From assembly GCA_000091205.1 (NCBI GenBank), contig AP006502.2: 64,000 bases of DNA; one strand, 5' to 3'. The notes under the pieces are model-generated. The model saw nothing but the letters and a program-made list of their open reading frames with translations. It searched no databases and was not told the origin of the DNA. Positions within the stretch are counted from its first letter, which is position 1. The number at the start of each line of letters is the position of its first letter. This DNA is from Cyanidioschyzon merolae. Its lineage: Eukaryota. This document shows, piece after piece, positions 13,501 through 61,143 of this stretch. The position numbers and the translations under genes are program-made.

Positions 13501-13782
13501 CATCTTCATCTGCTAAATCGATCGAGAAAACCGCTGATTCCCAGTAACTTTCTATTGGTACAGAGCAAATGCCCCAGTTTCGACAGCACACTACTCTGGA
13601 TGCCCCTACGAGCGGCGCGTCGCCTCGATTCGAACACCACCTGTCCCCCGTTCTTTTGTCGTGCAAACCTTGAATAGTTTTCTTCTACGTTTCTAGGATT
13701 CAACCTAGTTAAGTTTTTGTTTCAGGTGCACTTGGAAGCAATGACCTGTGTCGTTTCGTGACCCACAGTGCGGACCTATGCA

Positions 13783-14767: not shown

Positions 14768-14865
14768 GTAAGTATACATCTAGCGATATTGCTTCGAATC
14801 ACTGAACAGCTTACTAACCACGAGGATGCAGTGACGCAATCGCGGTGCTGCGCCTTCACGTCCAG

Positions 14866-29588: not shown

Positions 29589-29744
29589 TAAAGCATTCCA
29601 GGCGTCTCTTGAGCGTGTTCGTCTCACAAACGAAAGTTCGCCAGCGCCCACGCACGAAAAAGCCCTCGTGGCAGCGGTGCACTGCAGTGGCGATCGCCGC
29701 GCTCTGGACTAGACATCACCAACTTACGCGCAGACGCCTCGCAG

Positions 29745-31590
29745 TTTTCTTGGACCGTCCACCCACTACTACTTACAACTTTTTCTCATATAGTTCGACT
29801 TGTAGAGGTTGTCCAACTAAGTTCTTTCGTGTCCAATCTGGAGGTCTTTTCTCCACCACCGCACATCTCCGTATTGATTGCGGCATGAAAGCCTCGATTC
29901 ACGAATTCCATCCGTTTCTTGCCATCGTTGGTTGTACTGACCAATGCAAGCGATCCTCGAACTTTCGCCCTCCTTTCCATTAGCTCTTCCGTCAGAGGTC
30001 CGTACTTTTTTATATCCTCAGGGTTCCGCTGACACTTTTCCATCTCGACCCTCTGAAGTGTACAACCCAGCGCGTGGTGTGTATATGATGCTCGAAACTC
30101 ATCTATCGGTATTGTAACGAAACGCCGTGCACACTCCTTGTATACCCTCGTCGTTGGAGCTGGAGTAGTCCTTTTTGGGTCTTCCATCGCCCTGCTCAAT
30201 ACGCTACTACGAGCATCTGACTTTCATCCTCCTATAGGGCGCTCAACTGATTGAAGAAATTCGCGAACGCCCGCTGCTTCCCACAGTACAAATTCAATCG
30301 CAAACGAGCCCACCGGGGCTTTGTATACTCCTCCCACAGCGCATCCCAATGCGCAATGCGAACTTCCATGAATTTCCGAAAAAGCTTCAAAGTCCGCTTC
30401 TCGGCTCGTCACCTCGCTCAAAGCTGCCAGGTGCTCTTTCACTCCTGCGTTCCAAGTCTCAATTTTCTTTCTCGCATTCATCATGCCGGATTCTCGATAG
30501 TATCTCGCTCTCGGGAATCTCAACAGACGCATTTCTCTCTGACGTAAGTTGCCGTTGATACAATCTTCCGCACGCTTTGGTGCTTCAATGGTTATGATAT
30601 TTGTGTTTCCGGGTTCCGCGCGGAAGGTGCCAGATAACGACTTTGTCGTTGGCGCGGACCCCGGAAACACAAATATCATAACCATCGGTGCTCCCAAGCG
30701 CGTGGAAGATGGTGCTGACGGCAACTTACGTCAGAAAGCCATGCGTCTTCTGAGATTATCGAGAGCGAGATACTATCGAGCATCCGCTATAATGAATGCG
30801 AGAAAGAAAATTGAGACTTGGAACGCAGGAGTGAAAGAGCACCTGGCAGCTTTGAGCGAGGTGACGAGCCGAGAAGCGGACTTTGAAGCTTTTTCGGAAA
30901 TTCATGGAAGTTCGCATTGCGCATTGGGATGCGCTGTGGGAGGAGTATACAAAGCCCCGGTGGGCTCGTCTGCGAATGAATCTATACGGTGGGAGGCAGC
31001 GGGCGTTTGCTAATTTTTTCAATCAGTTGAGTGCCTTGAAGGAGGATGAAAGTCAGAGGCGCGTAGTAGCGTATTGAGCAGGGCGCTGGAAGACACAGAA
31101 AGGGCGTTCACCAGCTCCAACGACAAGAACGTACAAAGAGTGTGCACGGCGTTTCGTTACGATACGGGTAGAGGAGTTTCGAGCATCGTATACACACCAA
31201 GAGCTGGGATGTACACTTCAGAGAGTGGAGATGGAAAAGTGCCAGAGCAGCCCTGAGGAAATAGCAAAGTACGGATCGCTGACGGAGGAGCAAATGGAAA
31301 GGAGGGCAAAAGTTCCAGGACTTCTTGCATTAGTGAGTACAACGAGTGACGGCAAGAAGCGGATGGAGTTCGTGAACCGAGACGTTAACCCAGCTATCAA
31401 TATCAGGAAGTGTGCGGTGCTGGAGAAAATACCTCCAGCGTCGACAAGAGAGAACTTTGTTGGACAGCCTCTCAAAGTCGAACTATATGAGAAAAAGTTG
31501 GAAGCAGTAGTGAGTGGCCTGTCCAAAAGACCAGGAGGCGTCTGCACCTCAATTGAAGACTTCTTGTCTAGAGCGGGTTTCTCGCCACTA
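29745..31590. mobile_element. Palindromic head-to-head pair of 5'-truncated Fanzor/TnpB-like (IS200/IS605 OrfB-type RuvC nuclease) elements
   Basis: The central ~30 bp per side is a perfect inverted repeat: 30589-30616 (ggttatgatatttgtgtttccgggttcc) is the reverse complement of 30657-30684, across a ~40-bp asymmetric spacer. Each arm of ~0.9 kb then encodes, reading outward, a RuvC-I-like motif (VGADPGNTNIITIG), a degenerate Zn-finger region (VTI..EFRASYTH..LGC...CQ) and a RuvC-III motif (KRMEFVNRDVNPAINI). Arm ends near 29745 and 31590 are marked by antisense ORFs 29399-29983(+) and 31218-31976(-), which share the string LDRP.TT..NFFSYSST.RGCPTKF. Confidence 0.65.
29786..30637 (-). pseudogene. 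Fanzor/TnpB-like nuclease, minus-strand copy, more degraded
   Basis: Reading in reverse complement gives ...TFRAEPGNTNIITIEAPKR... (RuvC-I D to E). Frame breaks fall at ~30224 and 30199, then ...TRVYKECARRFVTIPIDEFRASYTHHALGCTLQRVEMEKCQRNPEDIKKYG...GKKRMEFVNRGFHAAINTEMCGGG (RuvC-III DV to GF), stopping at 29786. Confidence 0.5.
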
Positions 31591-31662
31591 CTGTACCACT
31601 GGCGACGTTCGACTTTCGAACGGCGTTCGATGGAAAGGGTGTTATTGGCCCTAGCTTTTTGA
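30639..31662 (+). pseudogene. Fanzor/TnpB-like nuclease, plus-strand copy, RuvC-I to C-terminus, interrupted
   Basis: Frame 0 runs 30639 to ~30950 (DFVVGADPGNTNIITIGAPKR...NARKKIETWNAGVKEHLAAL...). It shifts to frame +1 (…RQRAFANFFNQLSALKEDE…), hits an in-frame TGA at 31075-31077, then continues ...TYKECARRFVTIRVEEFRASYTHQELGCTLQRVEMEKCQ...GKKRMEFVNRDVNPAINIRKCAVLEK… to the stop at 31662. The aspartates of RuvC-I and RuvC-III are retained. There is no N-terminal WED/REC region. Confidence 0.55.
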
Positions 31663-33901: not shown

Positions 33902-34756
33902 ATGTGTACAAGGGACACGGCAGCGTTCAGCCAAATGGTAACCTGTTTCGTGGCAGTTTCGGCTCCGGGGCGAGTACGCTCGACCAGCACGCCGCAGAAG
34001 TTGGTGTTAGCGCAGCGTCCGACTGCTCCGCGTCTGGGGGCGTTCGCTCTGCGCGCGAAGCGCCGGGGCCACTCCCGGTTGAGTCGACCAGTTTCGGCTG
34101 GAAGCGACCTACCGCGACGACCTTCACGTGTCGCCGAACAGATTCGACGAGATCTGGCGGAGATCTTTCTGCACGAGCTGGTCACGTTCAAGAAAGTCGG
34201 AAAGGAACTGGTTCCGCCGACGTTCAGAACCAAGGATATTTCAGTCCTAGAAGTGAGCGTCACATCAGACTTACGGACTGCCCAGGTCGAGATAAGCGTC
34301 CTCAGTGCAGAGCCAAGTCCCCGTTCCTGCGTCGAGTGGCTGATGCGAAATCGTTGGGAAATTCGACACGCACTGGCCCAACGGATGCGGCACCAGAAGT
34401 TCGTTCCTGAACTACGCTTCCGCGAGTCTCGCGTGCCACAAGTCATGCGCACGCTGCAGCTTATCGATCGGCTCGCTGCGGAACGCCGGGGTCGTGAATC
34501 AACAGCATCTGAAGACCCAGAAATAATGCAGGCCGCCGCAAGCCCAGCTAGTGACTTTGAAACCGACGATACGATTCGACCAGAGGAACTGTTTTTAAGC
34601 TTACCACCCGCTAAACCTGATGCTGAAGAAACCGACATATTGGGCGATGATGTTGCCAGCATCGGTAGTGACTTTGAAACGGACGATAGAATTCGACCAG
34701 AGGACCTGTTCGTACGCAACCTGCCCGCAGAAACTGATGGTGAAGAAACCGACTGA
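33902..34756 (+). CDS. rbfA: Ribosome-binding factor A (RbfA) homologue with N-terminal presequence and C-terminal acidic tandem repeats
   Basis: The RbfA core is RVAEQIRRDLAEIFLHE...RTKDISVLEVSVTSDLRTAQVEISVL...CVEWLMRNRWEIRHALAQRMRHQKFVPELRFRES. The track's start is a GTG. I used the ATG at 33902, and 33935 is an alternative. The C-terminus repeats SDFETDD(T/R)IRPE(E/D)LF twice. Confidence 0.7.
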   Translation: MCTRDTAAFSQMVTCFVAVSAPGRVRSTSTPQKLVLAQRPTAPRLGAFALRAKRRGHSRLSRPVSAGSDLPRRPSRVAEQIRRDLAEIFLHELVTFKKVGKELVPPTFRTKDISVLEVSVTSDLRTAQVEISVLSAEPSPRSCVEWLMRNRWEIRHALAQRMRHQKFVPELRFRESRVPQVMRTLQLIDRLAAERRGRESTASEDPEIMQAAASPASDFETDDTIRPEELFLSLPPAKPDAEETDILGDDVASIGSDFETDDRIRPEDLFVRNLPAETDGEETD

Positions 34757-35590
34757 TCGGCTGATATCCTCATCACCTGCGTCGCGACGTTGCAGTCGAC
34801 ATAGACCGGAACGCAGCCCCTGGTCTAGTCGAAGTGTGCGCGCCTTCGAGTGAGCCGCGCACCGCTGCCTGCAGCTCAGACGCGTTTTGGATGCTTCTCT
34901 CGTCGAGCGATATTCAGCACCAGAGGATGCGACGGGTAGCATCATGTGCCTATATCCAAACGGTATTAAACGAGACACGCTTCCATAACGCTTTCGTCGA
35001 ATAAATAGGCAAAACTGCAGCGCTTGTGCGCTCCTAGCTGTTGAAGACGGGCGCGCTGGTGACCGAGCCCCCGAGCACGCCTTGCTGCAGCGCCTCGACA
35101 AGTCCACCAGATGATATTCGTCATCGAGAGGCGATGAACGACAATCCATGGCGAAATGATCTGCGGGAAATCGCAACGCGCTTGACAATATGCTAAGGGT
35201 TTCCAAAGTGCAAGCGTCCTGTGGGCGTTTAGGCGCTCGATCGATGGGCAATCAAGCAATCAAGCAACAAAAATGGCCACAAGTTCGACCTGGCGCCCAC
35301 GATCCAGCACCTACCCACGAGCTCGGCGTTGCGCACAGCGTATGAAAGCGCACACCATGATGTGCGCTTTCATTTGCATACACATGTTCGCAGCGAGGCA
35401 TGCAGCGCAACGACATGAGACCCAGAGGCCAACCCAAAGACATCTTCGAGAGAAGTACAGCGCAGGCGATTTTCAAGGATGTGATACGCTCCTGAATGCA
35501 TGCAATCGCGTCTGGATGACGTCTGAAAAGCTGCATCGAATGCATCTTGGATGCCATTGCACCAGAAGCGGCCTGCGATCAAGACGTGCT

Positions 35591-37675: not shown

Positions 37676-38619
37676 CAAGTCTTCGTCATCCACAGTGTCT
37701 TCGTAGCAGCTGAAGCGAAGCCAACGCGCGGCAACGTTCCGCTAAGAACGCGAAGCGCACCAGCGAGCGAACAGCCGCTTCGGGCTGCGCTTGGCTGCCT
37801 GAATCCCGCCTGCGTTCCTGTACTCGTGATTGTCCGAGAGATATCCGTTTCAGCATGAAACAGAACGGCTCCGCTTAGCGAACACGGCTATGTACGCCAC
37901 ATCGTGGGCCCTTTCTCATTGTAAGCAGCATCAGCCTTTGCGGGCTTGTTCTGTGACCGCTTGCTTTTCTTCTCGAATGAATCCGGCTATCTATATGCAG
38001 TGTTCGCCTTTCCCTCTATCCCGGTTATCAGCAGTCGAGGGATGTTGATGGCAGCGTGTAACTTCCGATGCCAAAGTTCCTGTCTGTCGTCGATACATTT
38101 CATGCACAGACGGGAGTTGCGATTGACGGTTCGCTTGCCAGGTGCACCCTGTTTGGGTCGGACGTTGGTGGACCTGTTGCAGCGGTGACACTCGAGTGTG
38201 GTCAGATGTTCCAGTACGAGTCCGCTGCATCTCGTCCTGCTCGGGGCGCTTCTCTGTCGCGCGTGAGGGCTCGCATCATCGCTCCGTATAAACCGTTCAG
38301 GGGTACAGGGAGTTTGCCTCGCTCCCGCATTTCATTACCGCACCCAGTGGCGTACCCTATGATCACCAGGTTTCTTTCGGCATTTCCTGTCGGCGAGTAC
38401 TGCATCTGCTGGGCACGGACGTGCACGCTGTACCATGCGAAAGGGGATTTGCGGAACGCGTGCCAGCCCATGATGAAACCAATACCGGAAGGAAAATCCG
38501 TGATGGTGAACAAGTCGGAAAGGTCGGTGCTTCTACGCTTCCCTCGCACACAGCGGTAGCATACGCTCTGCTGGAAGCGATCGCTGCAGTGGTTGCAGTC
38601 CGACTCCAACACCCTCTTC

Positions 38620-39060
38620 CATGCAATCAGAAGAGACAGGGGCATCTGCGAGTATATCCAGTGATCGGCGTCATACTGTCATCGAAAGCACTTTCGTCGA
38701 CAGTCACGAATAGAATGGGGTATGTCTTTTCTACGGAATGGACCATTCGGCATGACGCGTTCCTTGAATTTGCGGTTTGAGCTTGAGAAGACATCGTCCA
38801 GGAACAAGGGCGAATATTTCTCCTCATTGATGCATCCGCGCGCCTTGCTGCGACCTCGATTTGCCTTGAAACGAAAAGATCGACAACTTGAAGAATGCGT
38901 GATTTGGACACGCTACACCTAACCAGAAGGAGAATATTGGAGGCTTCTTCGTATGCATCCGCGAATGATAAGGGTTATTTAGTGTGCACGTGTTCGAGAG
39001 CTTCGCGTATTATCTTGATTCCGGTGCGAAAACAAATTCCAGCGGCAAAACGTCGAAGGG
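38620..39060 (-). repeat. Diverged partial copy (C) of the 1.07-kb repeat family, inverted orientation
   Basis: About 70% nucleotide similarity of 38880-39050 to copy B 20140-20300, with shared strings gaagaatgcgtg, gttatttagt and gcttcgcg.at.atct.gat.ccgg. The minus ORF 38627-38911 (..SVEKTYPILFVTVDESAFDDSMTPITGYTRR) resembles the copy-D ORF at 43391-43681. The extents are approximate. Confidence 0.4.
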
Positions 39061-40524
39061 CCCGCTTCGAGTAGGCGACTGAGAATCCTCGAACGACGTG
39101 TGGAAACCCAATGCCTTATTGCTGCACATGGAATGCCCACGTCGCACATCGGAAAAAAAGTTCAGAAAAAAGCACAAGGCAGGAATGGCACAAGCAGCTT
39201 AGTGTTCCATTTTTTATCCCATACGTGTGCAGACAGATCCACAACTGGTGTTTCGGTGGCTGCTTCGGTACTTTGAACGAACGAAGCGGTGAAACCGACC
39301 TGCTGCAGACCACCTAGATGCATACGGAGAACGCTCCGGAGGCACGAAAGCATCGCATATGTATATGTATATAGTGCATCAACGAGTCAGGCGTGGTCAT
39401 TGCGTAAACTTGGTTGCATGGATTCCTCGTTGCTGGATGCGCTTCCCGGACGGGTCCGCACAGCGCGTTGCATCTGTACTTGCATAGGGTCGCGTTGCGT
39501 CCTGGCGACCGTGTGGTGCTTGTAGTTGCAGCTTGCTACCGGTTCCGCAATAGGTCTGCAACACCTGGAAAGCCCATATCGCTAACCTGAGGGTCTGGAA
39601 GGTGTAACCGTTGTCCACCAAGCTCCGTTGCTCCGTCTGCCAGCATCAGCTTCACGGAACCGGTGAGAATTCGAAGAAAATGAGACTTGATTTCCGACGC
39701 TTTCATGCTCTCCCTTATAAGGAACTCTTGTAGCGAGGAGCGCTTTCGAACCACTGGTCCGAGAATCGCACGAGTTGCGAAAGTGTTCATCATTAAGAGA
39801 AACAAACTGCAGCGTCGTCGCGAAAACGAGCTGCATATCGGAAGAAATGCCATGATAGGATTGACCAAGGATTGTTGCTAGCTGGACGCCGGGAAGACGG
39901 TACGGGCGAGTGGAAATTCTTCTCCTCGAACAAAACGATGCGCACCTTCGAGTTCGTTCATTTTGAGACTTGTGCCCTGCATCCCAGGACTGTTCCTGCG
40001 AACACATTAGGTCAGTGATGGATGTTTAATAGCGCCAGTGGATATTCTGACCGCGCATGGAAACAAGTATGTATAGAATGCTGCGAGTAATCACCTGTGC
40101 GTCAAGGAAAATAATGATGGTGCCGTGATTTCTCGTGTTCGAATCATCATCATCAGCAGCAGCAGTAGCAGCAGCACTACTTATAGATGCACGCTCATGA
40201 ACGATTACCTGAGCATCATGGAAAACAGCATTGGTCCACGTTGCCCTGCATTGGAAGCATCATCAGTCGATGCGCTGCGAATAGACGCACGATCACCAGC
40301 AGCGTAATCAAAGCAGGCTGCTCCATCACCGAAAAGAAAGTGCGCTCGCTTCAGCGGTCGCGAGGCGAATCGCAGCTGCGTGACGATATCCGCGTTGCCC
40401 GACTTGCTAACCATTATGGATTTGAACATTTGCACCTCACACTGCAGAAACGCTCGGCGCTCCATTTGAACCTTTTTTGGCAACGAGATAATCGCCATGG
40501 AGTGCGAGCTTCTGTCGACCTAGT

Positions 40525-42885
40525 TCATGGTGAAGCGCCTGCAATCTGTGCGAGATTCGCATGACAGTCACGCTCAGAAGGGAGTGCATCACGCTCAGAG
40601 GCAGCTGTTGCTACCTTTGACGTCAACGCATCAATCTGCCGAAACTGCCACGGCCAGCGAATATTATATAGAAAAGGCCGCAGGTCAAAGCGATTGTCTT
40701 CGGGGCTGTAATTCTCACAGTGTACACTTGGCGTAAGCACCGTCATCTTATGGCGATTCACTGAATACATTCGAAAGAAGAACTTCACCTTCTCCGCAAC
40801 TTGCGACGGCGATAAATGCGCCTTCCACAAACGACTTAGCCTTTCGTACATGGAGACGGGTCCACAGCGCCCAATTTTCCGCAAACGCCCGTATACGGTG
40901 AGTTCCGCATAGGTCATGCCCATATCGGCCTCATCCGTCTGGACATATTCGCCAGTGATGGGTTCGAGTTCGGCGGTTGGCGGCGCCTCCACGACCTGCT
41001 GGAGGGTCTCGAAACCCAGCTCGTGCACCGCCCAGAGGAGGAAACGACGTAGGTCGTGCTTGGAGATGCCTCCAATAGGATTGATATCCGCAGAACTGGC
41101 ATCGTACTTGGTGAGATATCCACGCAGGGCCTCGTCGACGTTGGCGGATCCGAGCACCAGCAGCGTTCGCTGGCCATGGCCGCGAGCCCACGGCAGCAGC
41201 TGAGCAAAGAGATAGCTTAGCACCATTCGTATCCGCGCCTGAATATTCTGGAGTGCAGCATTTTCTACCGCGCTCCCGCCTTGGACTCGAAAACGCGGTC
41301 TCTCACCCGCAACCAGCGTAAAGACGCTGAGCACTGCAGCAACGACCGCATCGATCGGCAAATCCAGATGATATGCTCCAATTTCTTTCGCCAGTTGAGC
41401 TGCGCGTTCCCGTGTGGCTCGGCTCGAGTTCTCGCTCCGCATGTAAGCTGTATGGAGAATTCGAGACGCAAACTCATGAGCGTCCCGAGGAATGTACGCA
41501 TCTGCTGCGTTCTCCGTCAATTCAGCATCCGTACCTAATCCGAGAATGCGACGCGCCTCCCTGATGACGTGATCATTCCGCTGTTGGGCCTCGACTGCTA
41601 CCAGGCGACACATGGACGCCACAATCGTTGCCGTCGCTGAGCTATCTGCACCGCCACTCAACGGGAGAAAGAAACCGCTCGCGCCACTTCTCCGCAAATA
41701 GTCCCAAAGCCAACACGCCGGTCCATACGCGATCTCCTCCTCGGCAGAGAGCAACCGTACCGGCACTGGTTGACTCGGCATGTACTGCAGCTGCTCACCG
41801 TCAGAGAGAACAAGCCGGAACGACCTCTCCGATGGGTCAACAGAAGCCGGAACAGCTCGTTGCGAAGCGTCGCCAATGAATGCTGGACTGAATGCGCATC
41901 CCGTTGGCATCCCATCGATCCGTCCAGCGATATCCTCATGCCGCAACGATACGCTACGGCCTGCAGCATCGATGCGCGGCACGGGCGCCGTCGACGCTGC
42001 CTGAACGCCACGGCTGGCGATCGCGATGCGGTACGCAGTGATCTCGTCGAGATCGATGGTTGCGGTAATCACTTCAACTTCATCAGCGATTGAGAACTGT
42101 GACGCTTGGGCAACAATCTCACCGTTGATACATATAAGTGCACATCCATCGTAGTAGAGCCGTCCACCATCGCAACCCTGCTGGTTGGCGTAGAGGTAGG
42201 CACCGCCGCCTTTAGCCGTTGCACTTCGCAACAGATCGATACGTTGGTTTAGTTTCCGCAGGTTGTGATGCGACCCACTCCCATTACCGATGATATCACA
42301 GCCATTGAGGCTGTAGCGTATATGAGGAGCGTCCGGGGTGAAGAGCTCTTCACAGGTCTCGCTGGCGACAACCACGCCGCCGATATCGAGCAACGCTTCG
42401 CCGAAGAGCGTTTCCGCTTGCGCACCAGCTGCGACTTGACGAACACAGTCTGGGAGCGGGTACTTTTCAAGTGCTCGTCTACCATTGGCCGGCCATGCTG
42501 TAAACCAGCGAGACTCTCGATAGTTCCCGTCGTCTGCTAGAGCGAGCTTGGGTCGAATCAGAAGGATCCTGCGGTTCAGGAGCAGCACACGACAGTTGTA
42601 GGCTACGTGTCGGTGGAGAACAGGTGCACCCAGGTCGACCAGGATGTCATCTGTGTAGCCTCTCGCGATGATCTCCGCAATAACCTCCCAGCTATGGACG
42701 AAAGTGTCCGGCTCCAGAAAGTGATCCTCGCACCCGTAGCCACTGACTTCTAGTTCTGGACCGAGACGGTAGCGTGCTCCAGCCTCTCTGGCCCGAGCAA
42801 TCGAGCAGCATATTCGCTCCAGGTTACCAGCAAAATCCAGTGACCACTGGTTCAGGTTACAAGTCGCCACCCGAACAAGTCGCAT
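40525..42885 (-). CDS. NADSYN1: Glutamine-dependent NAD+ synthetase (Qns1/NADSYN1 type: N-terminal nitrilase/CN-hydrolase domain + C-terminal NAD synthetase domain)
   Basis: ATG at revcomp 42883-42885, 786 aa. The N-terminus MRLVRVATCNLNQWSLDFAGNLERI is typical of Qns1. The ATP pyrophosphatase motif is FLPLSGGADSS. The protein is collinear along its length and single-exon. Confidence 0.9.
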   Translation of the reverse strand: MRLVRVATCNLNQWSLDFAGNLERICCSIARAREAGARYRLGPELEVSGYGCEDHFLEPDTFVHSWEVIAEIIARGYTDDILVDLGAPVLHRHVAYNCRVLLLNRRILLIRPKLALADDGNYRESRWFTAWPANGRRALEKYPLPDCVRQVAAGAQAETLFGEALLDIGGVVVASETCEELFTPDAPHIRYSLNGCDIIGNGSGSHHNLRKLNQRIDLLRSATAKGGGAYLYANQQGCDGGRLYYDGCALICINGEIVAQASQFSIADEVEVITATIDLDEITAYRIAIASRGVQAASTAPVPRIDAAGRSVSLRHEDIAGRIDGMPTGCAFSPAFIGDASQRAVPASVDPSERSFRLVLSDGEQLQYMPSQPVPVRLLSAEEEIAYGPACWLWDYLRRSGASGFFLPLSGGADSSATATIVASMCRLVAVEAQQRNDHVIREARRILGLGTDAELTENAADAYIPRDAHEFASRILHTAYMRSENSSRATRERAAQLAKEIGAYHLDLPIDAVVAAVLSVFTLVAGERPRFRVQGGSAVENAALQNIQARIRMVLSYLFAQLLPWARGHGQRTLLVLGSANVDEALRGYLTKYDASSADINPIGGISKHDLRRFLLWAVHELGFETLQQVVEAPPTAELEPITGEYVQTDEADMGMTYAELTVYGRLRKIGRCGPVSMYERLSRLWKAHLSPSQVAEKVKFFFRMYSVNRHKMTVLTPSVHCENYSPEDNRFDLRPFLYNIRWPWQFRQIDALTSKVATAASERDALPSERDCHANLAQIAGASP

Positions 42886-43389
42886 CTTCCGTGCAGCGCT
42901 CGCTCTGGAGCACCGGACGTCCAGTAGCGAGGGTCGTCGCCTTGAACTGCACGCCGTTCCGTTCCTCTGCCGGACGGGCGAGCGTCACCGAGCACACCAG
43001 AGCAGACCTAGAATGCTGGACTACACGAATAGAACAAGAGATTCCTGGCGATATCGTCGGTTTGCAGCACAACAGCAGTATTGGCAACTGCGCAGCAAGT
43101 CAGTATGGTGTACGCGCACGAAAACGAGCGAGCGTCCCCGGGAACGTAAACTTGTCGTCCATCACCAGGGTAGAGACGAGCTGTGTTTACTTGGTATATG
43201 TTTATGTGACGCCGTCAATCATGTCCATAAAATGCTTATCTGGGGCGTAGCTTCGGGTCTGTATGTCTAGAGGCATGCGGTCACGGGAGCGAAAACGTTT
43301 CGCGACCATGTAGGGTGCATGAATAGCTATCCGCAGACGCTTTTCAGCGTTTTTTGACCGGCCCGCAGCTATCCGCTTCAGCTTCTACT

Positions 43390-43960
43390 TGTGTTCTTTG
43401 AACCTGAGAGGCTACCCCACGAAGTGAGATTGCGTCAGCTCCACGGGTCTCGTCTTCAGCATCGCGTATCCTATGATATTGATGGCGGTGTTGAAGCCTC
43501 TGTTCACGAACTCAATGCGTTTATTGCCTCTCGTCACAGCTTGTATTGTGTCGAATATTCAATTCGAAAGACGAATGAGCCTCTCTTTGTGGTCATCAAC
43601 GAAACTGCATTCCGTAGCAGCATGATACCGCTGACGGGATTTGCCACAGTACGCTCCCGTCTTTTCTGTTTCCAGCGATAAGAGCCTGGAACTTGAGTCA
43701 TCGCAGCGATCGCTTTTGCCGGGGCATGCGTCACCGCTTGGAACAAGGCGAGCGTAGACGGATCGATATTTTTCGATCTCTTCTCCAATCTGGATTTCCT
43801 TTCCGCACTTGTTTCATCACGCACAACATCGCGTTCCATAACACCCCTATCGAATGGAACAGCGTGGGCTTGCCCAGCGCGAACAGGCAAGCGTTCACGC
43901 GCCACAGAGCAACCGTCTGAGGAGCTATGGTGAACACGTACCAAGACCTGACCTCACTCA
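43390..43960 (+). repeat. Diverged partial copy (D) of the 1.07-kb repeat family, direct orientation
   Basis: 43700-43900 aligns to copy A 7780-8000 at about 75% identity, with agtcatcgcagcgatcg, gcatgcgtcaccgcttgg and gcgagcgtagacggatcga. Its ORFs 43391-43681(+) and 43534-43944(-) resemble copy A/B ORFs at the protein level (DET..ERKSRL...DPS.LA..QAVTHAP..IAA.T.V). Confidence 0.45.
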
Positions 43961-44547
43961 AGTAGCAATGATGCGAATGGTGCACCGATGCTGTATAGCA
44001 AGAAGATGAAAATGACGAGCAGAGCGTAGATCGCAACCTCTCGCCCGTGGTTGAAATGCATTGACAACAGTTGGACGCGTCGAAATCGGGTCTTGAACGC
44101 GGCCATCAACATCAAGCGGCTGCTGAACATGGAGTTGGATAGAAACGAGCGACTGGCGTATTTAAAGCTGGGTGTAAGAGAGAGGAAAAGGAAACGATTG
44201 CAGTAAGAACCCGCAGAGGCTGCTGTTGATGACCATGGAAAGAGATCCAAAGTCTAAAGTGTCCGCCCGTGTTGGAAAGCCCGTTCCATTTTATTCTGAC
44301 GTGCGTATAGCGTTATATCCTGCGCGAATGCAGGTCTCGTGCGACGCTCCACAACAAGTTATGGAAACCCGTCGGCATATGGTAGGCAGAGCCAAGTTCC
44401 ATGCCGTGCCTCAACATCATTCGAAAACTTGATCCCAGTGTCTTCGCGTCTGCACGCTGGTGGCGAGTCGCTTGTTGCTGACGACCTCTTCAGATCGTGT
44501 ATGCCATCAAATGCTGCTGCTGCTGCTGCTGCTTGCCTGAGCGCAGC

Positions 44548-46785
44548 TCAATAACCTTGCGGACAGGTCGCTACGAGTTCCCCAGTAAGACTGTACGCTC
44601 GTGCTTGCGTAATGCGAACATTGGCCATGCGACCTCGCCAGCGCTGGATTCCTCCAGGAGCCTCGAAGAATACTTTCTTATTCGTTCGCGTGCGTCCACA
44701 GACGCCCAATTCCGGGGATTTGGGGTTCACCTCCTCAACCAGTACCTCTTCAATCCGGCCTAAATAACGCTGACTACGAGCATCGACAATACGCATGTTC
44801 AGCTCATTGATCCGGTGCAGACGTTCCATTTTCACCGCTTCCGGCACCTGATTTTCCCAGGAGGCAGCGGGAGTAAAAGGCCGCGGTGAGTACGCTGCCG
44901 TGTTGACATTATCTAACTGTAATGCTTCCATGAGTTCAAGCGTGCGTTGAAATTGCTCCTCAGTTTCTCCGGGAAAGCCAACAATCGCATCGGCGGTGAT
45001 CGCTGCATCGGGGAGGTATTCGCGGATCATTTCGATGATCCGCCGATACCGTTTCGCAGTGTAGCCCCGTCCCATAGCCTTGAGGACCTCATCATCACCA
45101 GCCTGGAACGGAATATGGAAGTAGGGCATGATATTTGGGAGCTCTGCAGTCGCTTGGATGACGCGCGGTGACCAGTACCGCGGATGTGCAGTAATTGCAC
45201 GAATGCGATCGATGCCTGTTGCAGAGACATGACGTAAGAGCTGCGCGAAGGTGACTCGTGGGCGCATGTCCCGGCCGTAGGCATCTATATTTTGACCGAG
45301 AAGCGTCACTTCGCGATAGCCTTCATTTTTCAGCTGGACGACTTCGTTGACGATGGATTCGACGCTGCGTGATTGCTCCAGACCCCGTGTGTACGGCACG
45401 ACGCAGTACGTGCAGCGTTCATTGCAACCATAGGAGATATTTACCCAGGCACAAACCTGGGACTGCCGTCTCGGCTTGGAAATATCCTCCATGATGTGAA
45501 TCGGTTCCGTTGCGACCACTTGATTACCATTTTCAACGTCTTCGAGGAGATCAGCCAGACGGTTGGCATACTGGGGCCCCATCACCAAGTCCAGAGCGGG
45601 AATGCGGCGCAGCATCTTCACGCCTTCCTGCTGTGCAACGCAACCTGCGACGATCAATTTGAGACCTGGATTACTCTTCTCCTTCATTCGAACAAACGGT
45701 CCAAGAAAGCTGTAGACTTTTTGTTCCGCGTGATCGCGGATGGAGCAAGTATTCAGGAGTATGAGATCTGCTTCGTACGGATCTGGTGTGTGCCGGTAAC
45801 CGCATCTTTCGAGCTCGCCAGCCATTCGCTCCGAGTCCGCCAAGTTCATCTGGCAACCAAAAGTCTGCACGTTGTAGAGGCGACGCCTCGTCCTACTGTT
45901 GGGGTTCTCTCGAGCGTACAGCTGCGGCACCAGTTCCCCGCTTCGAATATACCGGGACTTGGTCGCCGTCGGCACGAGTTTGTATTCTGCGTCTTCCACT
46001 CGTACAATGTGGAAGCCGCGTTGCGTCTGCAATTTGAACACCACCCGCGGAGCACTATTGAAGCAGTAGAACTCAAGTTCGGCATCCAGCGAGCCACGAG
46101 CGTGCCAGCCGAGGTCACCTCCGTTGGCTCGCGAGCTCTCGTCCAATGAAAGCGTCCGAGCGAGTGCGTCCATGCTTGCTGCATCGGCGCTGAGTTGCTG
46201 CAGCACCAGGTCGGCCATCTGCTCCGTTGCAAGTAGAATGTGACGGACCCGAACACGATCTACAACCTCTTCCCCTACCGGAAATGCGACATTTGGATTC
46301 GGATTAATCAATGTGGAGCTTGCAAGTGTCTCGGGTGTCGCGTCCAACGCGGTGGTCGCAGGGCCAGTACCGCTGGCGTGCGGTGCCGCTGACATCCCCC
46401 AAGTACGAAACGCGCAACCTTGAGAGCGTCGCTCACAGCGTGCCCTGCGTGCGAGCACTTTTCGCGTTTCGACTGTTGCGCCGCACCAGCCGCTAGACTG
46501 GTTCAAGTGGAGCCCGCATGTGGCGCCGAACCGCGGGTTCACCGGAGAGGTAACCACCGACCACGCAATACAACGCGTCTTGTGCGGTAAGCGCATCGTT
46601 TCTGAGGGAAACCGGTGCGCTCTCCGTTGTGTCCTCTGTGCTGGGTTGTCCGTTGCGCTTCTGACGAGCATCCTTGCGACTGCAGCGCTCTTATCGGTTC
46701 GTCCGGCAAGTGCAAAACACTTGTTTCCCTGCGCTGACGCTGAATAGGTGCAGCCAGGTATCGCTCCGAGAATGATAACGATCAT
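44548..46785 (-). CDS. miaB: Fusion protein: PpiC/parvulin-type PPIase domain + MiaB-family radical-SAM methylthiotransferase (tRNA i6A37 methylthiolase-like), with N-terminal presequence
   Basis: A single 764-codon ORF. The track's start is a GTG. I used the ATG at revcomp 46783-46785, and the start is uncertain. The parvulin signature is [11 protein letters not shown]...[29 protein letters not shown]...GFHIVRVED. The MiaB portion has the N-terminal MTTase cluster [17 protein letters not shown]...LNTCSIRD, radical-SAM [19 protein letters not shown] and a C-terminal TRAM-like region. Confidence 0.8.
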
Positions 46786-48284
46786 CTTGGGATAATCATG
46801 GCTAAAATGGTCGACACTATGGATGGCGCGCTGGGCAGCCACTGCGAAGCGTCAGCGCATCCCAGGTTCTCGGGATGCGAATGCGAATCCGACGAGTTGC
46901 TGGGGCAGGGCTCGTCTGCCGGAGGCAAGCACTGCACGCTCGAAGGCGAAACTTGGAGACAACCTCGGGAGAGATGATTCTGCGGGAAAAATATGGATCG
47001 TGGCTGGTGGTCTCTCCAGGCATCGTGCGGTATGATGGGCACTCTCCCGTCCACGAATCAAATCGAGTGACTAGAGACTCCGGCTCGAGGTAAACGACCC
47101 CTCCAGAAAGAATCCGCAGAAAAGATGAGATTTGAGCATCTGAAACAGGGAGGAAGAGCTTTTGCGAGATATCCGGTCAGCGCAGTCGCTTTAGAATCGC
47201 AGAAAACCCCGAGTGGTGCCTACAATAGTCGCCGCACAACTCGATCTGTATCGAGGACGTTTGTTTATCCCGGGTTCGCCGTCTCAATTCCCTGAGCAAG
47301 CGAACAGGCCACCAGATTCTCCGATGCCCAGCCGTGAAACACAGAGGCCAATTTGTGTGTCTGTCGTCTTGGAATTCGGCAGGAGCTTTCGGTCATCTGG
47401 ACAGAGGTAAGGAATCGAGCGCTGTGGTCAACCGACGGCGAAGCGTCTTGTTTGTGGGAGCACCTCTGACGCTGACCAAGACAGAAACCCGCAATGATCC
47501 GAGAATTTCCGCGACCTGGATTCGAATGCATCTTGTGACCTTCCAATGTTTCAAAGTGTCTCTCAGCACCACTTCGTCATAACCTCTCTCGAAAGAGAAG
47601 ATGTTCGATCCGGAATCCGGTGATATGCGCGGGATTCCATAGCGCTGACGTTGAACAGGGACGGTTCGCGATCGACCCAACAGGAGAGGTCGCTGCTGAA
47701 CACGATCCTACGGGGCAGGTCGCCAGTGTCTATTTGCGAGGCTAGGACCCGCGTAACGGTGGTGGTCCGAACGGTATCGACACAATAGATCTTCGCTCCT
47801 GCAGCTTGTTTCTCGACTTTTCAAGACCAGTTGAATGCGTTTACCCGCCCTGAGACCAAATATGATGCAACAGATGTAGTCGCCGGCGCTTGGATGCGAA
47901 TCGGAGACACCTCTTTCAGTGACGGTACCTGGGGTTTCCGCACCACAGAACTTCGTTCACACATAGCTTGTTTGGAGACGTTTCAAGACTGATTAAATGC
48001 GTTTACCCGCATTCAAATGCAACCGGTGACGTGTGCACTCACGTTGCCGAGACACGTTTGTTCATGAGATAGGTAAAAGTGCCGACAATTCACCGACGGA
48101 TTTCACGAACAGGAGAGCTCTCCACGTACATCTCAAGGCATGCGCAACATTCTCTCCCCAACGCAAAAAAACCCGTTGCGACTATGGACAAATCCGGCCG
48201 ATCTGAGTGCTCATCTGGCTCCGCCCTGGAACTATATCACCTATGGAGATGCAGACTCACACGGCATCTTTGCCCGAGGTGTGC

Positions 48285-48758
48285 CTAGGAGCGCTTCGAG
48301 TCCGTTGTAGCTGCTGTCGGATCGGCGGACTTGAGGCTCTTGAGCTTCATTTCTTCCTTTTGTTTCTCCTCCTTCTCCGCATCTGCTAGGCTCGTCTCAA
48401 GGCCTTCTTTGAACTCCGAGGAGGCCCGCTTCAGGTTGCCTGCGAGCGTTCCCAAGTTCCGCCCAAGCTCGCCAATTCGTGAAGGCCCCCAAATCAGCAG
48501 CCCAACACCCGCAATAACAGCTATCTCCGGCCATCCGAGCCCAAACAAGCCCATTTGCAAAGCGCTAGCTGCACTAGGTCTCGTGCAGTGGCCGGCTCGT
48601 TCGGGGAGCGCGCGCGTCTCCTGAAGCTGCCGTCGCTGCGCCGCCCTGCCACGACGTGACTCGCGAACTAGACTTGCCGCATTTTTCAAGCAAAAAGAAG
48701 AGCAAGAAACACTTTCGTGCAAGTGTTGGTTTGTCTTTGATAGCGACAGCACGAACAT
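48285..48758 (-). CDS. tatA: TatA/Tha4-type Sec-independent translocase subunit with ~68-aa transit-peptide-like N-terminus
   Basis: The mature part MGLFGLGWPEIAVIAGVGLLIWGPSRIGELGRNLGTLAGNLKRASSEFKEGLE matches plant Tha4/TatA (GLFGLGVPELVVIAGVAALVFGPKKLPEVGRSIGK...). The track's start is a GTG, and the first ATG is at revcomp 48756-48758. Confidence 0.7.
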   Translation of the reverse strand: MFVLSLSKTNQHLHESVSCSSFCLKNAASLVRESRRGRAAQRRQLQETRALPERAGHCTRPSAASALQMGLFGLGWPEIAVIAGVGLLIWGPSRIGELGRNLGTLAGNLKRASSEFKEGLETSLADAEKEEKQKEEMKLKSLKSADPTAATTDSKRS

Positions 48759-50741
48759 TGCCAGTGTGTATGTCCGAGGCACCTCGAACACCAGAGAGCA
48801 ATCCGAAGTACGCTGCGCAATGCGTTTCCAGAGAATCGATGGACGGGTCCAGCGCAGGCGAGGCACGTCCGCCAGCACGAAGCACGTGTTCGGAATATAC
48901 AGTTAAGTCAGTAAATGTCCATGCATGCATGCTGTGCAGGCTTGGCATGCCCCGTTCCGTCAACTGCTTCAGCGTTCTGCATAGCCTTCGAACGTGCACT
49001 GTAAACAGCCTTGCTTCCATGCGCGTGCACCATGGGCCTTGATGTCGGTTTCAGCTCCGCGCTGGTGGACGCAGACGCTTCCACCTATCTGATAACCGCG
49101 CTTGCTCGCGCACGGGCTGCCCAGACCAACACGGCGGAAATTCGCCCTATGAGCCACAGCAATGTCGCAGCTGGACGAATTTGAAGTTGGTTTGTGTATC
49201 GAAAACGGCGACGAAATGATCACAATTTTCCTTTCCCATCCGTGAATCGGGATAGCGCAAACGAGTAACCAGGCAGGCCAGCTCTGCCTCCAGTGCTGGA
49301 GGTGTGATGTGCACGCCTTGTCGATGAGTGCGGCAACATCTTCTCTGGCGGGCGACGAAGCCTACCAGTTTATAGCTTGACTCGCACCTGATTCGTGGCG
49401 CCCGTGAGCCTCATCGATGGGATTCCTGTCAAACGACAACCATCTTTTCACGGACATTCTCAATTTGCTAATTCACATGGAAAGGATGAGCGATCCAGGG
49501 TAACATACACCGTTCGTATACCGAGCGTTGTTCTGTGCACAAGTGTCGCGCCTGTCGATACGCAGCTTAATGGAGACCGTTCAACGACTTGCAGCCGTGG
49601 ATGTGTTTCCATGCGTATGCGTGCGCGCTGAATATCCTCTTCTGGATTCGAGCGGACGGACGCGATATCGAGTGGCGCGTGTACCTATTTATCCGAGGCG
49701 TCTTGGATGCTCGCGCTCCAAAGCAATGTGCGCAGCGCCCTTCCAAACAAGACTTGCTTCAGCATAGCGTCTGTCGCAGTCTGAAGTCCGACTCGCGTTT
49801 CCGCCGACCCCGTGCGTCGCCTCGCAAGTCCACACCAGCATCACCAAGAACAACAAAAACAACAACAACAGCAGCAGCAAGTCCCGCAGCTAGCGAAGCA
49901 CGCTGCCCAGCTCGGCATATAAAATGCTAGAGCGGCGTCTGTCTGGCGGCGATGCTGACATTTGCTGGGCTTTTCGTCTCGTCGCCTTGAAGGCGTATTG
50001 AAACCCTGACCGCATCCATGCTTAGCGCCGTGACTCTGGTGCGCAGCCACAGGTATCCCTTCGCCACGCCTGTGAAGCATCTATTTTCTAACGCCGACAG
50101 TGAAACCGGTCTGGCGATCGTAGGACGTGGAAGCATCCACGGGAGCAGAGTTCTCTCTTGGCTGATGCCAGACAACACGGGTGCCCCGGGAGAATCCACC
50201 TGGGATGCATAGATTCTCGCCTTTGGAGGTGCACACGAAATCGCTGGAGCGCGCGTGCGTAGAATCGGGGATCCGCAGGCTCGCTGGAAGCCGTCCTGCG
50301 CTCGCGGGAAACGCATCACTCGCCATTTCGTGCTAACAGGCTCACTCGCTTTTCTGCTGGTGCTGGTGCTGGTGCTGGTGCCGGTGCCTGCGTTAGACGC
50401 CTGCAGCAGCTCCTTGAGCGTCGTAACAAGCGCCCGCGGCACACTCGTTACCCCGGAGGACGCTCTGTTGAACGACCCTGGGCTTCATAGACGAACGCTA
50501 CGCTGAAGCTGCTACGCCAAACTATTTGCGTAGGAGGAAAAGTGGACGCCGCCGCTGCCTATAGGCAGCTTTCGCACACCCGGAAGCGTCAGGTTAGAGG
50601 CCAAACTCCTGCGCCATAGGAAGATCGAGCCAAGTCAGGCTGGTACCCTCTGGTTGCATACAACATCCACTGCATAGCAGCGAAGCATACCATCCATTTT
50701 CCAACACGTGGACGATTTATCTGTGCGAGCTGCGGGCGCCA

Positions 50742-54184: not shown

Positions 54185-55273
54185 GTCACCGCAAGAACGC
54201 GAAGTTACCAGGAACGGAATCCACACGAAGGCTCAGTTTCCCGCGCATTTTTCGACGCCGCCGCGCACGGTGCTGTCTCGCCGCGGCTGTGCGCGCGGAT
54301 CCGCTGATTCCGGTGGTACGTTCAGCGGTGTGCCTCCGCATGCCCCGCGTGTGTCTCTGGAACACGGCGTTGACACTGACAGGTGATTGCCCAATGCGCA
54401 CTTGATCTCAGTCATCGGGGGAGCGTTTATCGCTCTACTCGCCTTTGAATTCCATTCAGCATACTAATATTTGGACATACTGGATATTTCCCATGGAAAA
54501 CTGCGCACCGTGTCGAGCGTGAGCACCTGCTATAGCGCCTATAGCGTCGGTGCGGTCGCAGCAGGGAGACACAAGGGATTTGCTGTATTACCGGGGAGAG
54601 TCGGCTTGTGGTGTAATTCACCCGATGCGGGTTCTGATCTTGGTATCGATTTGTGTCCGGAACGTCCGACCACATGCCCAACGCCATGCGCAATGTTGCA
54701 TGCGCGCGCGATTCTCCTTTCGCCGAGTGCCCCGCATCGGCTGTCGAGGTCGAAGAGGCAGCGCGTTCATTTCGGGACTATTATGGCGCCTACGCTGCCG
54801 GGGTATCGAGGCGGATGAGCGTCAGGTCCACCATGGACATGGACAAGCAAGGTGCGTCTTGATGCCACAGGAATGATGCGACTGAGCTCGAGCGCGTTGG
54901 TGATGGACGACCCATGCCGAGCGGATTCTTCCGCTGCTCGAGATGCCTGCGCCCGGCAGCCTGTGCGGTCGGAATCGATGGCGAAGCGAACAAGGCAGGC
55001 TGATTCCGCCGCAACTCGACGCGATTGGATGACTCGAATCGAGCACTGCGGGAGCCTGCATTCGAGCCCCGATGACAACGCTCCCCAGCGTATCACAAGA
55101 AGACCTCCCATTTGCTTATAAGATGGTGTACCCATTCGCCTTGATGCACACAGGATGCTGCCGTCCACTTTGCCGAACATGCTGCAAGCATCGATCGGCC
55201 GCAAAGCTCGTTGAGGCGCGCCGATGCTTGCGCTTCGTATCCGCTGGGTGCGGGGGCACGCGGGCCCCACTCG

Positions 55274-55489
55274 CCAGAAACGCGCGCATACGGCACAAGA
55301 TCGACATCGAATTTGGGATATCATGGTTCTTTACGGACCATATTGGACTATCGGAAAGCCTCAGCTATCTGGCTCTCATTGTCCAGAAACGCGTGCATGC
55401 AGCACAAGATCGACATCGAATTTGGGATATCATGGTTCTTTACGGACCATATTGGACTATCGGAAAGCCTCAGCTATCTGGCTCTCATT
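55274..55489. repeat. Tandem direct duplication, 2 x ~108 bp, in the FtsZ/TraB divergent intergenic region
   Basis: 55274-55380 and 55383-55489 are nearly identical (ccagaaacgcg.gcat.c.gcacaagatcgacatcgaatttgggatatcatggttctttacggaccatattggactatcggaaagcctcagctatctggctctcatt). Confidence 0.8.
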
Positions 55490-58691: not shown

Positions 58692-61143
58692 ACAGTTGGC
58701 GTCAAGGAACGGGCAGTGAATCAGTGACGAGGAGCGCTTGTGACATCGTGTCTCGTGCCGGGCCGCTCGTGAGTGTCAGCGCGTAGCTCGAGCCACGTTC
58801 GTTCGATGAGGTAGGTATCAGCGTAGAAAATGGAGCGCGGATGGTATGTTCGCACACTTTAAGTCCTGCACATATAAGTGTTGAGCTGGTGCCCCTGTCG
58901 ATAACGGTGCACGTTCCGCGGATGAAAGACGGGGACGGATGACACATGTGGCCTTTATCGGACTTGCCCATGATGTGAGAGTGCTTTGCAGCGGCAATCG
59001 ATCGATGGGTATTCGGCCGCAAGTACGATGCAGCTGGGCACGGAATACCGATACTGGACACGTCGATAAGTAAGAGCATCCTGTCGGTTCCGTGCCTTGC
59101 ATCAGTGCGGCTCTGTGCACAGAAGTGGAGACGATCTCGTGCGGGAATCATCATGCTTGCGCCTATGAGGAAAGATTGCAACTTGTGCATAACATCGGAC
59201 AGTGCTCTTCCATTTTCAGTATGATGTACGGTTTACAAGACATTGGGATTCGAGTTGCAGAAAGCGAATTCGCCTGGACGTCCGCGGATAATACAGAGAA
59301 GCGAGGCCCGCCCTGTGCATGGCATACACTCCATGTTTACGTAAAGCCAGAAGCCCGTCGTCGTCGAATACGAATTGTGTATTGAGGGATCTTGTTGGCA
59401 TGGACGCCGCATGAGCTCCTACAACGCCGCCTTTGCGTATTGGACGGGCACAACCATTTCCCCACAGCATCGACATGTTGTCCACGTCGCCCTGACTGTA
59501 GCCTGCCGGCGCTCCCAGATACCATGTTGCACCAGTAGTCGTTACGTAAACTCCGGCACGACTCTACCCAATAAAATCTTTATCAGAGCATATCGAAAAT
59601 CCTGCTATAATGTTGTACCGGTTATCCTTGCGTGAACGCTCGCACCAAATCGTTCCATCCGAGAAACTCGTTCCAACCTTCCGCCCACCTTGCCTGCACG
59701 GCAGCAAATCGCTAAACCGACTGCTGATGTTTCAGAGACACACGAACGGCCCTCGGTCGATGCGGTAACGCGGCGGGACTGCGCTAGCACGTATCGCTTC
59801 GGTGAGCAGACACGCAAACGATGAAATGTCACACGGACTGCATGCCAAGGGATTTCGGATCGCAACCGAGGCAGGCAGTTTGGCAGCACTTGGTACCGAT
59901 AGAATGCATCAGGGCGCATGCGTTGACGAGAACGGTCCACCGAAACACGATTCCCGCCTTTCGTGGTCAACAGAACCCTACGTCGTTGCTTCGCCAGGCG
60001 ACATGAGCCTGCTATGCGTCGCTACCCGAACACTGAAGCGCCAGCAGACACAGCAAATGAGCTACGGGTGCTGGACACGAAACCCTGTCTCGGTAGTAGG
60101 AGGCCGCACCAGCGCCAACGATTGGCACGCCGATGAACACGGCGACTCCTGGTGCCGGATGCGCTGTCGCACGCGCGAAAGCATGCACATCCATCAAGAC
60201 GCTACCACAGCTATTGTGGACTGCGAGAACCCGCTGACCCTGTGACTGACTTCGGGCAGCCGTCACCACGGTGCTATTCGCTATCCGGAGCTATTGCGCC
60301 CACTTCCAGATAATCCTGAAAACGCAACACGCGCCACCTGGTGCTGGAATCATTGCACTCAATCACCGTTTTTACAGGCGTTCGAGGAAACGCACGCAAA
60401 GCTCTGCACCACAAAGATCACAGCATGCTTTTTCCGGGTACAGGCGGGTGTCGGATCGTTGACGGCATCGAGGAATCACCATTTACGTGTGAGCAACAAT
60501 TTTTTTACGATCCAGGATCGCTACGTCTAATTAGGGATCCCCCGGACGCACCCCAAGTTTCGAAAACCAGAGCAGCAAACCCCCGTACCGCTCCAGTCCT
60601 GTAGCGTTGCAGGAGCCGCAGAGAAGCTGAAGGACACGCCACTCGAAAAGCACCCTCATGGTCATCCACCGTGTGCCGTATAGGTAATGTAACTTGGGAG
60701 TAGGGGTTTGATGGATACCTCACCGCACACTGAAAAAAAGTAAGAAAAGAAAATGCGCATAATCAGAGAACGCTGGCCAAAGTAAACGTTTTGTCCATGG
60801 CAAAAAATCCACCGTGTGTCGTTCCGGATCATTGCGGCGCGCCGCACTGACGACCGACGTGTTTGAAGGGAATCGTCAGACACTACTGCTGCTACTACTA
60901 CTGCTGCTGCTGCTGGTGGTGACGTTTTCTAGTCCTGAACAGAGGGCGAGTGAAGCGCAGCCTCTTGTCTTCGGACCGGGGAGCTCTTTACGAGGTAACC
61001 TGAAGGGTCTGGTGTAGCTCATCTCAGAGACAAGTAGTGCGTAGCGTGCAACGCTCAGATTCGGAACGGCAGCGGTGTGCTACTGTCGACGCACGGCAAC
61101 TGCGACACGAACGCTTGTTTCGGTTTTCGCAGCTGGTCCTTGC

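Follow-up and report, generated by a model that had tools for sequence, protein, structure and literature searches.

Probable relics of a chimeric transposase–Fanzor1 transposon family on either side of the NAD synthetase gene of Cyanidioschyzon merolae

The 64,000-nucleotide (nt) stretch of Cyanidioschyzon merolae DNA considered here (contig AP006502.2 of assembly GCA_000091205.1; this whole stretch is referred to below as the window) contains the gene for a glutamine-dependent NAD synthetase, whose open reading frame (ORF) matches the protein of C. merolae 10D at 100% identity. The DNA is nuclear, from a red alga and not from a prokaryote, and is intron-poor; its other ORFs include those for mTERF, TAF7, FtsZ, a proteasome subunit, an SNM1-type nuclease and a MiaB-like enzyme. 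The NAD synthetase ORF has a copy of a decayed repeat on each side, C and D, and the two are opposite in orientation, as had been recognised in the initial annotation of this DNA. Two other copies of the repeat, A and B, are present elsewhere in the window, and all four are in intergenic spacers beside gene ends (Table 1). C and D are very probably two independent, ancient and dead insertions of a non-autonomous family of class II (cut-and-paste) transposons, and for their inverted layout no special mechanism is needed.

The membership of C and D in the same family as A and B, also proposed in the initial annotation, was assessed with a profile made solely from five copies outside the window, to escape circularity. 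It finds C at 39215-37842 on the minus strand (E 1.5e-205) and D, on the plus strand, as two pieces, 43550-43885 (model positions 471-820, E 1.6e-68) and 43880-44311 (model positions 941-1376, E 2e-67). It detects A and B also, the E values for the four copies running from 1e-205 to 1e-67. Similarity by chance is not what is being seen, as the reversed window, used as a control, gives zero matches. A multiple alignment of A to D shows homology across about 1.2 kb. With sensitive BLAST settings, comparison of the window with itself aligns A and D at 72% over 329 nt (E 4e-44), B and C at 75% over 85 nt (E 7e-9) with weaker collinear segments in addition, and C and D at 65-67% over 216-279 nt; the matches of C include one of 67% over 184 nt.

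The extents given for both copies in the initial annotation are here revised. C, placed before at 38620-39060, is full length. Its 5′ end, with the remnants of a helix-turn-helix (HTH) segment and a DDE_3 domain that are described below, is at 39225 and points toward the NAD synthetase gene. The 3′, Fanzor-like, end of C, at 37831, is 138 nt upstream of the start of the SNM1-like gene (37693). D, placed before at 43390-43960, starts ~470 nt into the unit and has an internal deletion of ~120 nt (model positions ~820-941). The sequence adjoining its truncated 5′ end is not part of the family. It is a fragment of another element, CMe-1A, and it is because of this fragment that there is a short similarity between D and the arms of a palindrome elsewhere in the window. 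The frames of C retain VTVDESAFDDSMTPITGY, VIIGYATG and EHLTTLECHRC...CMKC...AAINIPRLL, and those of D retain NETAFRSSMIPLTGF and LKCIDNS..RNRVLNAAINIKRLL.

In an alignment of seven copies the unit is ~1.36-1.4 kb. It is bounded by terminal inverted repeats (TIRs) of at least ~22 nt with the consensus CC(G/A)TGTCAGA(A/T).A.AATGGAAC, derived from left ends and reverse-complemented right ends in 9 copies. At up to 4 mismatches the core of the TIR occurs 4 times in the window, compared with 0 times in 5 shuffles. None of the copies examined has a long ORF and there is no codon (3-nt) periodicity in the substitutions, which rules out a family of protein-coding genes. A known RNA family or a tRNA-derived short interspersed element is ruled out also, Rfam being empty both at the gathering threshold and at E up to 10. 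Nor is the unit a miniature inverted-repeat transposable element (MITE). Such elements are below ~800 bp, non-coding and TIR-bounded with target-site duplications, and the present unit, at its greater length, has coding remnants. (No MITEs are given for C. merolae in P-MITE; PMC3964958.)

The coding remnants were read from a majority consensus of six independent copies with the frames joined by hand. An HTH-like segment (..ILGRRFGVVHSTLCRW..) is carried in the 5′ part of the consensus. There is also a DDE_3 domain (PF13358; E 1.5e-9, 38.3 bits with a cut-off of 28.6), the remnant of which reads ..FVAIDETAF..GYAPVGSR..FIMDSIAFHK... The consensus in addition matches Cas12f1-like_TNB (PF07282), the OrfB/TnpB zinc ribbon, with E 6.6e-6 and 26.6 bits vs a cut-off of 26.3. 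Its tail, KKPVIIGYGTGRG...EHLTTVKCHRC...CMKC...NRDLNAAINI, fits the published C-terminal motif of Fanzor/TnpB proteins, defined as [TS][TS]-x-x-C4 zinc finger-x(5,50)-RD (PMC3627910). The part of Fanzor1 that is present in the unit is only a C-terminal fragment, with the RuvC-II region, the C4 zinc ribbon and the RuvC-III NRDLNAAINI. For the RuvC-I aspartate, expected 125-275 residues upstream, the unit has no counterpart of the DPG/RuvC-I region of P0124 (an intact Fanzor1-like protein considered below), the upstream part being transposase-derived. The DDE_3 match stops at position 113 of the 146 in its profile, and the region of the third catalytic residue overlaps the Fanzor-derived part. 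A complete D,D,E/D triad in an intact ORF was not found; the copies are relics and not active members. With a DDE_3 remnant and a Fanzor1 tail between TIRs, the unit is thus an internally deleted chimera.

Table 1. Repeat copies, their termini and associated features (positions are those of the window unless a contig is named)
Feature	Position	Strand	Description
Copy A	7285-8544	+	Starts ~105 nt into the unit, without a 5′ TIR; nhmmer model positions 107-1385
Copy B	19121-20477	-	Full-length, with both TIRs; nhmmer model positions 2-1386
Copy C	37831-39225	-	Full-length, ~1.39 kb, decayed; nhmmer with a model lacking A spans model positions 1-1390
Copy D	43550-44314	+	5′-truncated, with internal deletion; 3′ TIR intact
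TIR of A	8514-8534		Core 8514-8531, consensus 17/18
TIRs of B	19135-19155 and 20455-20477		Cores 19135-19152 and 20458-20475
TIRs of C	~37846-37866 and ~39204-39225		More decayed
3′ TIR of D (GTTCCATTTTATTCTGACGTG)	44283-44303	+	Core 44283-44300, consensus 18/18
NAD synthetase gene	40525-42885	-	Glutamine-dependent, 786 amino acids (aa); Pfam CN_hydrolase and NAD_synthase
CMe-1A fragment	43333-43528	-	CMe-1A positions 2889-3084; 70.6% over 197 nt, E 7e-19 (blastn of the published consensus against the window)
CMe-1A/TE-N2_CMe fragment	3945-4383	-	
CMe-1A/TE-N2_CMe fragment	54520-54625	+	
CMe-1A/TE-N2_CMe fragments	L010 746-941; L017 2962-3446		
Palindrome, 1.9 kb	29672-31625		Two 5′-truncated CMe-1A 3′ ends, head-to-head; not of the A-D family
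P0124 gene	L022 5569-7224		Intact Fanzor1-like, 551 aa
P0122 gene	L023 6001-7833		Intact Fanzor1-like, 610 aa

Intact relatives of the Fanzor part were found in hot-spring metagenomes. A protein search has the 3′ half of the consensus 44-65% identical to the intact Fanzor1-like proteins P0122, P0124 and P0125 (418-610 aa). Tblastn with these three matches all four copies in the window (C at 37945-38448), and at the DNA level the family profile matches the intact Fanzor1 genes from model position ~790 on. P0124 aligns with the published CMe-1 Fanzor1 at 26% over 430 aa (E 1e-13), with IETDG, DPG, YG.GR and NRDFNAAINI common to the two. Direct comparison of the family consensus with CMe-1 gives E 7e-4, the protein remnant being only ~20% identical. 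(The N-terminal half of P0122 is odd; it is Q-rich and without the usual IETDG/DPG motifs.) Sequence searches of PDB with the consensus tail and with P0124 gave no matches, and scans of IMG/VR for intact Fanzor relatives gave nothing. Besides the intact relatives, their contigs (L022 and L023, also L024-L028) encode a divergent Rpb2 (485 bits to the Rpb2 of RNA polymerase II), an RNA ligase, a Peptidase_S74 protein and numerous small ORFs. Such a set of genes suggests large DNA viruses, which have been reported from hot springs of this type (PMC11003980). The virus-like contigs hint at the source of elements of this kind.

At least nine distinct copies of the family are known: A to D, E1 and E2 (contig L010), F (L017), G (L030) and H (L029). 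The extra copies were sought in metagenome contigs by a single scan for a 21-base pattern that A/B, C and D have in common; such a scan recovers only copies that retain the pattern, and it returned 12 hot-spring contigs. The new loci are those of E1 and E2, which are in direct orientation 1.3 kb apart (L010/L011/L015), and of F, a single copy (L017/L019/L021). G and H were found via ORFs called on decayed copies. The region of C and D is itself represented in contigs from C. merolae-like populations, L014 corresponding to window 38600-49104 at 99.2% and L020 to window 41929-47934. The presence of the same loci in environmental contigs implies that C and D are fixed at their sites in wild relatives. 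Across the common core, identity is 59-66% for every independent pair, and the divergence is star-like. The 70-75% similarity of C and D to A and B that was given in the initial annotation holds in the best blocks only. C and D are 61.6% identical. Since this is no closer than other pairs, they are in all probability separate ancient insertions and not the products of an inverted duplication.

Several points weigh against seeing C and D as dead copies of a chimeric class II transposon. Single copies give no Pfam match to DDE_3 or to TNB, and the domain calls rest on the reconstructed consensus. In that consensus the DDE_3 and Fanzor parts overlap by ~50 nt in different frames, and the junction and the ‘YSP’ motif are ambiguous. 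There is no consistent duplication of TA or of other target sequence at the flanks of copies whose termini are uncertain by ~10-20 nt and which are ~25% decayed. No autonomous parent, with a DDE_3 transposase and a full Fanzor between TIRs of the family, was found; the family TIR is absent from the contigs with intact Fanzor relatives, and the genes adjoining those relatives contain no DDE_3 domain. The tallies of copies and of their orientations cover the window and the metagenome contigs, not the entire genome. Finally, the neutral decay of C and D is something that we infer.

Inverted copies of a TIR-bounded element around one gene have, superficially, the look of a gene flanked by insertion sequences, and C, the gene and D could be taken together as a present or former composite transposon, or as an inverted segmental duplication, through which the NAD synthetase gene arrived where it now is. 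That is exceedingly improbable. In Cyanidiococcus yangmingshanensis the genes FtsZ, HhH-GPD, TatA, MiaB, NADsyn, SNM1, RbfA, S7 and Erv1 are in the same order and on the same strands as in the window (L001), and no copies of the A-D family were detected in its contigs (L001-L005, L031). As MiaB-NADsyn-SNM1 order and strand are conserved there without the copies, the NAD synthetase gene has been neither moved nor flipped by C and D. The MiaB-NADsyn spacer is 768 bp in Cyanidiococcus vs 1,663 bp in the window and the NADsyn-SNM1 spacer is 792 bp vs 2,832 bp; removing D with the CMe-1A fragment, or C, moves the C. merolae spacers nearer to the Cyanidiococcus lengths. The identity of C and D, inside the range of all pairs, also stands against a composite transposon, and so does the truncation of D, which is gene-proximal, at the CMe-1A fragment, and has left it without an inner TIR.

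A different possibility is that the repeats have a non-coding function, as a family of structured RNAs or as shared cis-regulatory modules, exapted from a transposon, in promoters or untranslated regions. All the copies are intergenic and beside gene ends, another repeat family of C. merolae, that with 253 copies, is reported to be transcribed (PMC1955436), and C and D have been kept at ~99% identity in environmental strains. However, this 99% is the same as that of the flanking unique DNA (strain divergence, 0.2-2%, gives too few differences for a test of constraint on C and D). What conservation there is tracks the decayed coding frames and not RNA helices. The position and orientation of copies with respect to neighbouring genes vary, and truncations and deletions differ from copy to copy. 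There is no matching Rfam family. A tRNA-Ala(cgc) called by ARAGORN within D, at 43839-43913 on the minus strand, is a false positive. Its acceptor stem is mostly G-U or mismatched, it has no T-loop consensus, and the Rfam tRNA model gives no match to it even at E up to 10. A non-coding role for the repeats is very improbable.

The inverted disposition of both A/B and C/D was interpreted in the initial annotation as systematic pairing and not as coincidence. On such a reading, copies near one another would arise or survive more often in inverted than in direct orientation around host genes. Possible causes are the loss of direct pairs via deletion of essential genes, or the use of inverted pairs as invertible switches or insulators. 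It is an established principle that, among recombining repeats, inverted ones outlast direct ones, and this counts in its favour. Also in its favour are the occurrence of two inverted pairs inside 64 kb, of a third inverted structure from another element (the CMe-1A palindrome), and of recombination between A and B, which bracket an interval that has the other orientation in the outgroup and in L012, an environmental contig. However, C and D, at 61.6%, are too diverged to recombine, and the star-like divergence means that they are not sisters. The orientation of the NAD synthetase gene is ancestral. The head/tail geometry of the two pairs is opposite: in C/D it is the 5′ (transposase) ends that are inward and in A/B it is the 3′ (Fanzor) ends. 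Neighbours in direct orientation also exist, B-C in the window and E1-E2 in L010. The neighbouring pairs observed in the window and contigs, 2-3 inverted vs 2 direct, fit a coin toss, and the probability that both of two pairs be inverted by chance is 0.25. Systematic pairing is thus very improbable, and that part of the initial annotation is not supported. With insertion orientation random, the inverted layout of C and D is very probably coincidental; the arrangement around the NAD synthetase gene has no demonstrable function today.

The situation with A and B is different from that of C and D. A 7296-8366 and B 19292-20362 are 99% identical over 1,071 nt, inverted and 10.9 kb apart. Outside this tract the family sequence in A and B is only ~55% alike (e.g. 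A 8367-8544), and flanks at ~55% around a tract at 99% imply that two old copies have been homogenised in their core. A and B differ at 12 discriminating sites, which occur in mosaic combinations in environmental contigs, and ongoing gene conversion would account for the tract. Contig L012 leads from the RlmN side, across the repeat, to the TMEM70 side, with the 10.9-kb interior (8367-19291) inverted vs the window. The order in Cyanidiococcus, TMEM70-PHO4-proteasome-FKBP-UGDH-mTERF (L031), is the L012 arrangement, from which it follows that the L012 form is ancestral and that 10D has the inverted form, with A and B as the sites of breakage. Alternatively, both orientations coexist or one of the assemblies is wrong. 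Contigs L006-L009, which have an identical UDP-glucose dehydrogenase, all end 120-180 nt inside repeat A (~7416-7479). Assembly breaks of this sort are expected at a near-identical repeat, and so the identity of A and B holds in wild populations.

[The interval between A and B holds TMEM70-like, PHO4 and proteasome subunit genes, among others. The ORF of the PHO4 phosphate transporter, 13768-14805 on the plus strand, is 345 aa vs 472 aa in the Cyanidiococcus orthologue (L031) and matches positions 1-219 of the 350 in the Pfam model. A frameshift, an intron or a different start are possible reasons for its shortness.]

The course of events that would give rise to C and D may be as follows. The 5′ ~800 nt of the unit come from a transposase gene of IS630/Tc1-mariner type (HTH and DDE_3 to about the third catalytic residue), and the 3′ ~550 nt from the C-terminal part of a gene for Fanzor1, which is the eukaryotic TnpB-like protein. 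Once the lineage had separated from Cyanidiococcus, copies would have spread through intergenic spacers in a burst of transposition, for which an autonomous element with a Mariner-type transposase and Fanzor1 presumably acted in trans. Neutral decay would then have brought each of them to about 60% pairwise identity. Only A and B would have stayed alike, by gene conversion, and recombination between them would have flipped the segment that they bracket.

If C and D are two dead insertions, their value is mainly for the annotation of C. merolae. A second TIR-bounded family, with at least nine copies and IS630/mariner plus Fanzor1 ancestry, explains much of the extra spacer vs Cyanidiococcus. 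A and B provide a concrete case of repeat-mediated inversion and gene conversion in a minimal eukaryotic model genome. A larger proposal can be put forward only tentatively, the balance being somewhat against it. The A-D family would be a second, undescribed, Fanzor-associated lineage in C. merolae in which a deletion joined an IS630/mariner-type transposase to the tail of a Fanzor1; the intact Fanzor1 proteins closest to it would be on giant-virus-like contigs of the same acidic hot springs, and A and B would drive a 10.9-kb inversion that is polymorphic among strains. If this were true, it would mean transposon traffic between the nuclear genomes of red algae and their large DNA viruses.

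Earlier surveys of repeats in C. merolae bear on how this family is to be placed. In Nozaki 2007 an interspersed element of 3.2 kb that contains a WSV486-like ORF is reported in 253 copies, and “transposase-related” class II elements, with weak bacterial matches, number only eight (PMC1955436). Bao & Jurka 2013 described one Fanzor family in C. merolae, the TIR-less Fanzor1 element CMe-1A of 3,169 bp with ~150 copies, and their list has a Fanzor1 from white spot syndrome virus too (PMC3627910). CMe-1A (TE-N2_CMe) is probably the abundant repeat of Nozaki, and the eight class II loci with weak “bacterial-type transposase” matches may be the A-D family. Identity of the A-D family with CMe-1A was considered and ruled out. 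Blastn of the two consensuses, that of CMe-1A being taken from the supplement of Bao & Jurka 2013, gives only chance 10-18-mers, and in having no nucleotide similarity to CMe-1A the family is distinct from it.

CMe-1A has nevertheless left its own traces in the window. The palindrome aligns CMe-1A positions 2191-3142 with 30621-29672 and positions 2158-3169 with 30619-31625, at 87-88%. Its arms are ~85% alike and its centre is 30 nt; in Cyanidiococcus the spacer orthologous to the one that contains it has only ~730 bp. CMe-1A pieces recurrently adjoin copies of the A-D family (D, E1 and F), which suggests that insertions gather in the same spacers. An inverted repeat of 136 nt, at 4574-4709 vs 60684-60806, has 79% identity (89% in the inner 56 nt) over a separation of 56 kb; by eye it is like the first ~100 nt of CMe-1A/TE-N2_CMe, and BLAST with the consensus did not detect it. 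Local tandem duplications with units of ~107-117 nt, at 55274-55489 (97%) and 34538-34765 (~80%), are apparently in or beside ORFs.

Four known systems invite comparison. Concerted evolution and inversion between inverted repeats, as in the flip-flop of the plastid inverted repeat and the arms of sex-chromosome palindromes, fit A and B alone. They do not fit C and D, given their divergence and that the gene they bracket is not inverted. With CMe-1A the family has in common the genome, the intergenic location, the age and decay, and a C-terminus of Fanzor1 type (VV.YG.GR ... NRDFNAAINI). CMe-1A, however, is 3.2 kb, without TIRs or a transposase, and its zinc finger is degenerate; the A-D family is TIR-bounded, retains part of a DDE_3 domain and has CxxC..CxxC in canonical form. 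The likeness to IS630 and Tc1/mariner/pogo (DDE_3) elements is in the HTH-like N-terminus and in the DE.. and ..MDS..HK motifs, which are in the expected order and at the expected spacing. The difference is that the unit is pseudogenised and truncated, and that neither the third catalytic residue nor a TA duplication is recognisable.

The closest parallel in overall design is with PUl-1 and PUl-4 of Pythium ultimum and PGv-1 of Phaeocystis globosa virus, which are Mariner/Tc1-type transposons with a captured Fanzor1 (PMC3627910). Compared with these the A-D family is a ~1.4-kb relic without the C-terminus of the transposase and without about three quarters of Fanzor, RuvC-I included; there is no nucleotide similarity to the published elements, no autonomous copy was found and no TA duplication was recognised. 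What is alike is the TIRs of ~20-30 nt and a DDE_3 transposase followed on the same strand by a Fanzor1 with a C4 zinc ribbon and RD..NAA.NI. Among the Mariner-Fanzor1 elements chimeric and deletion derivatives are common, and there is likewise an association with large DNA viruses (PMC3627910).

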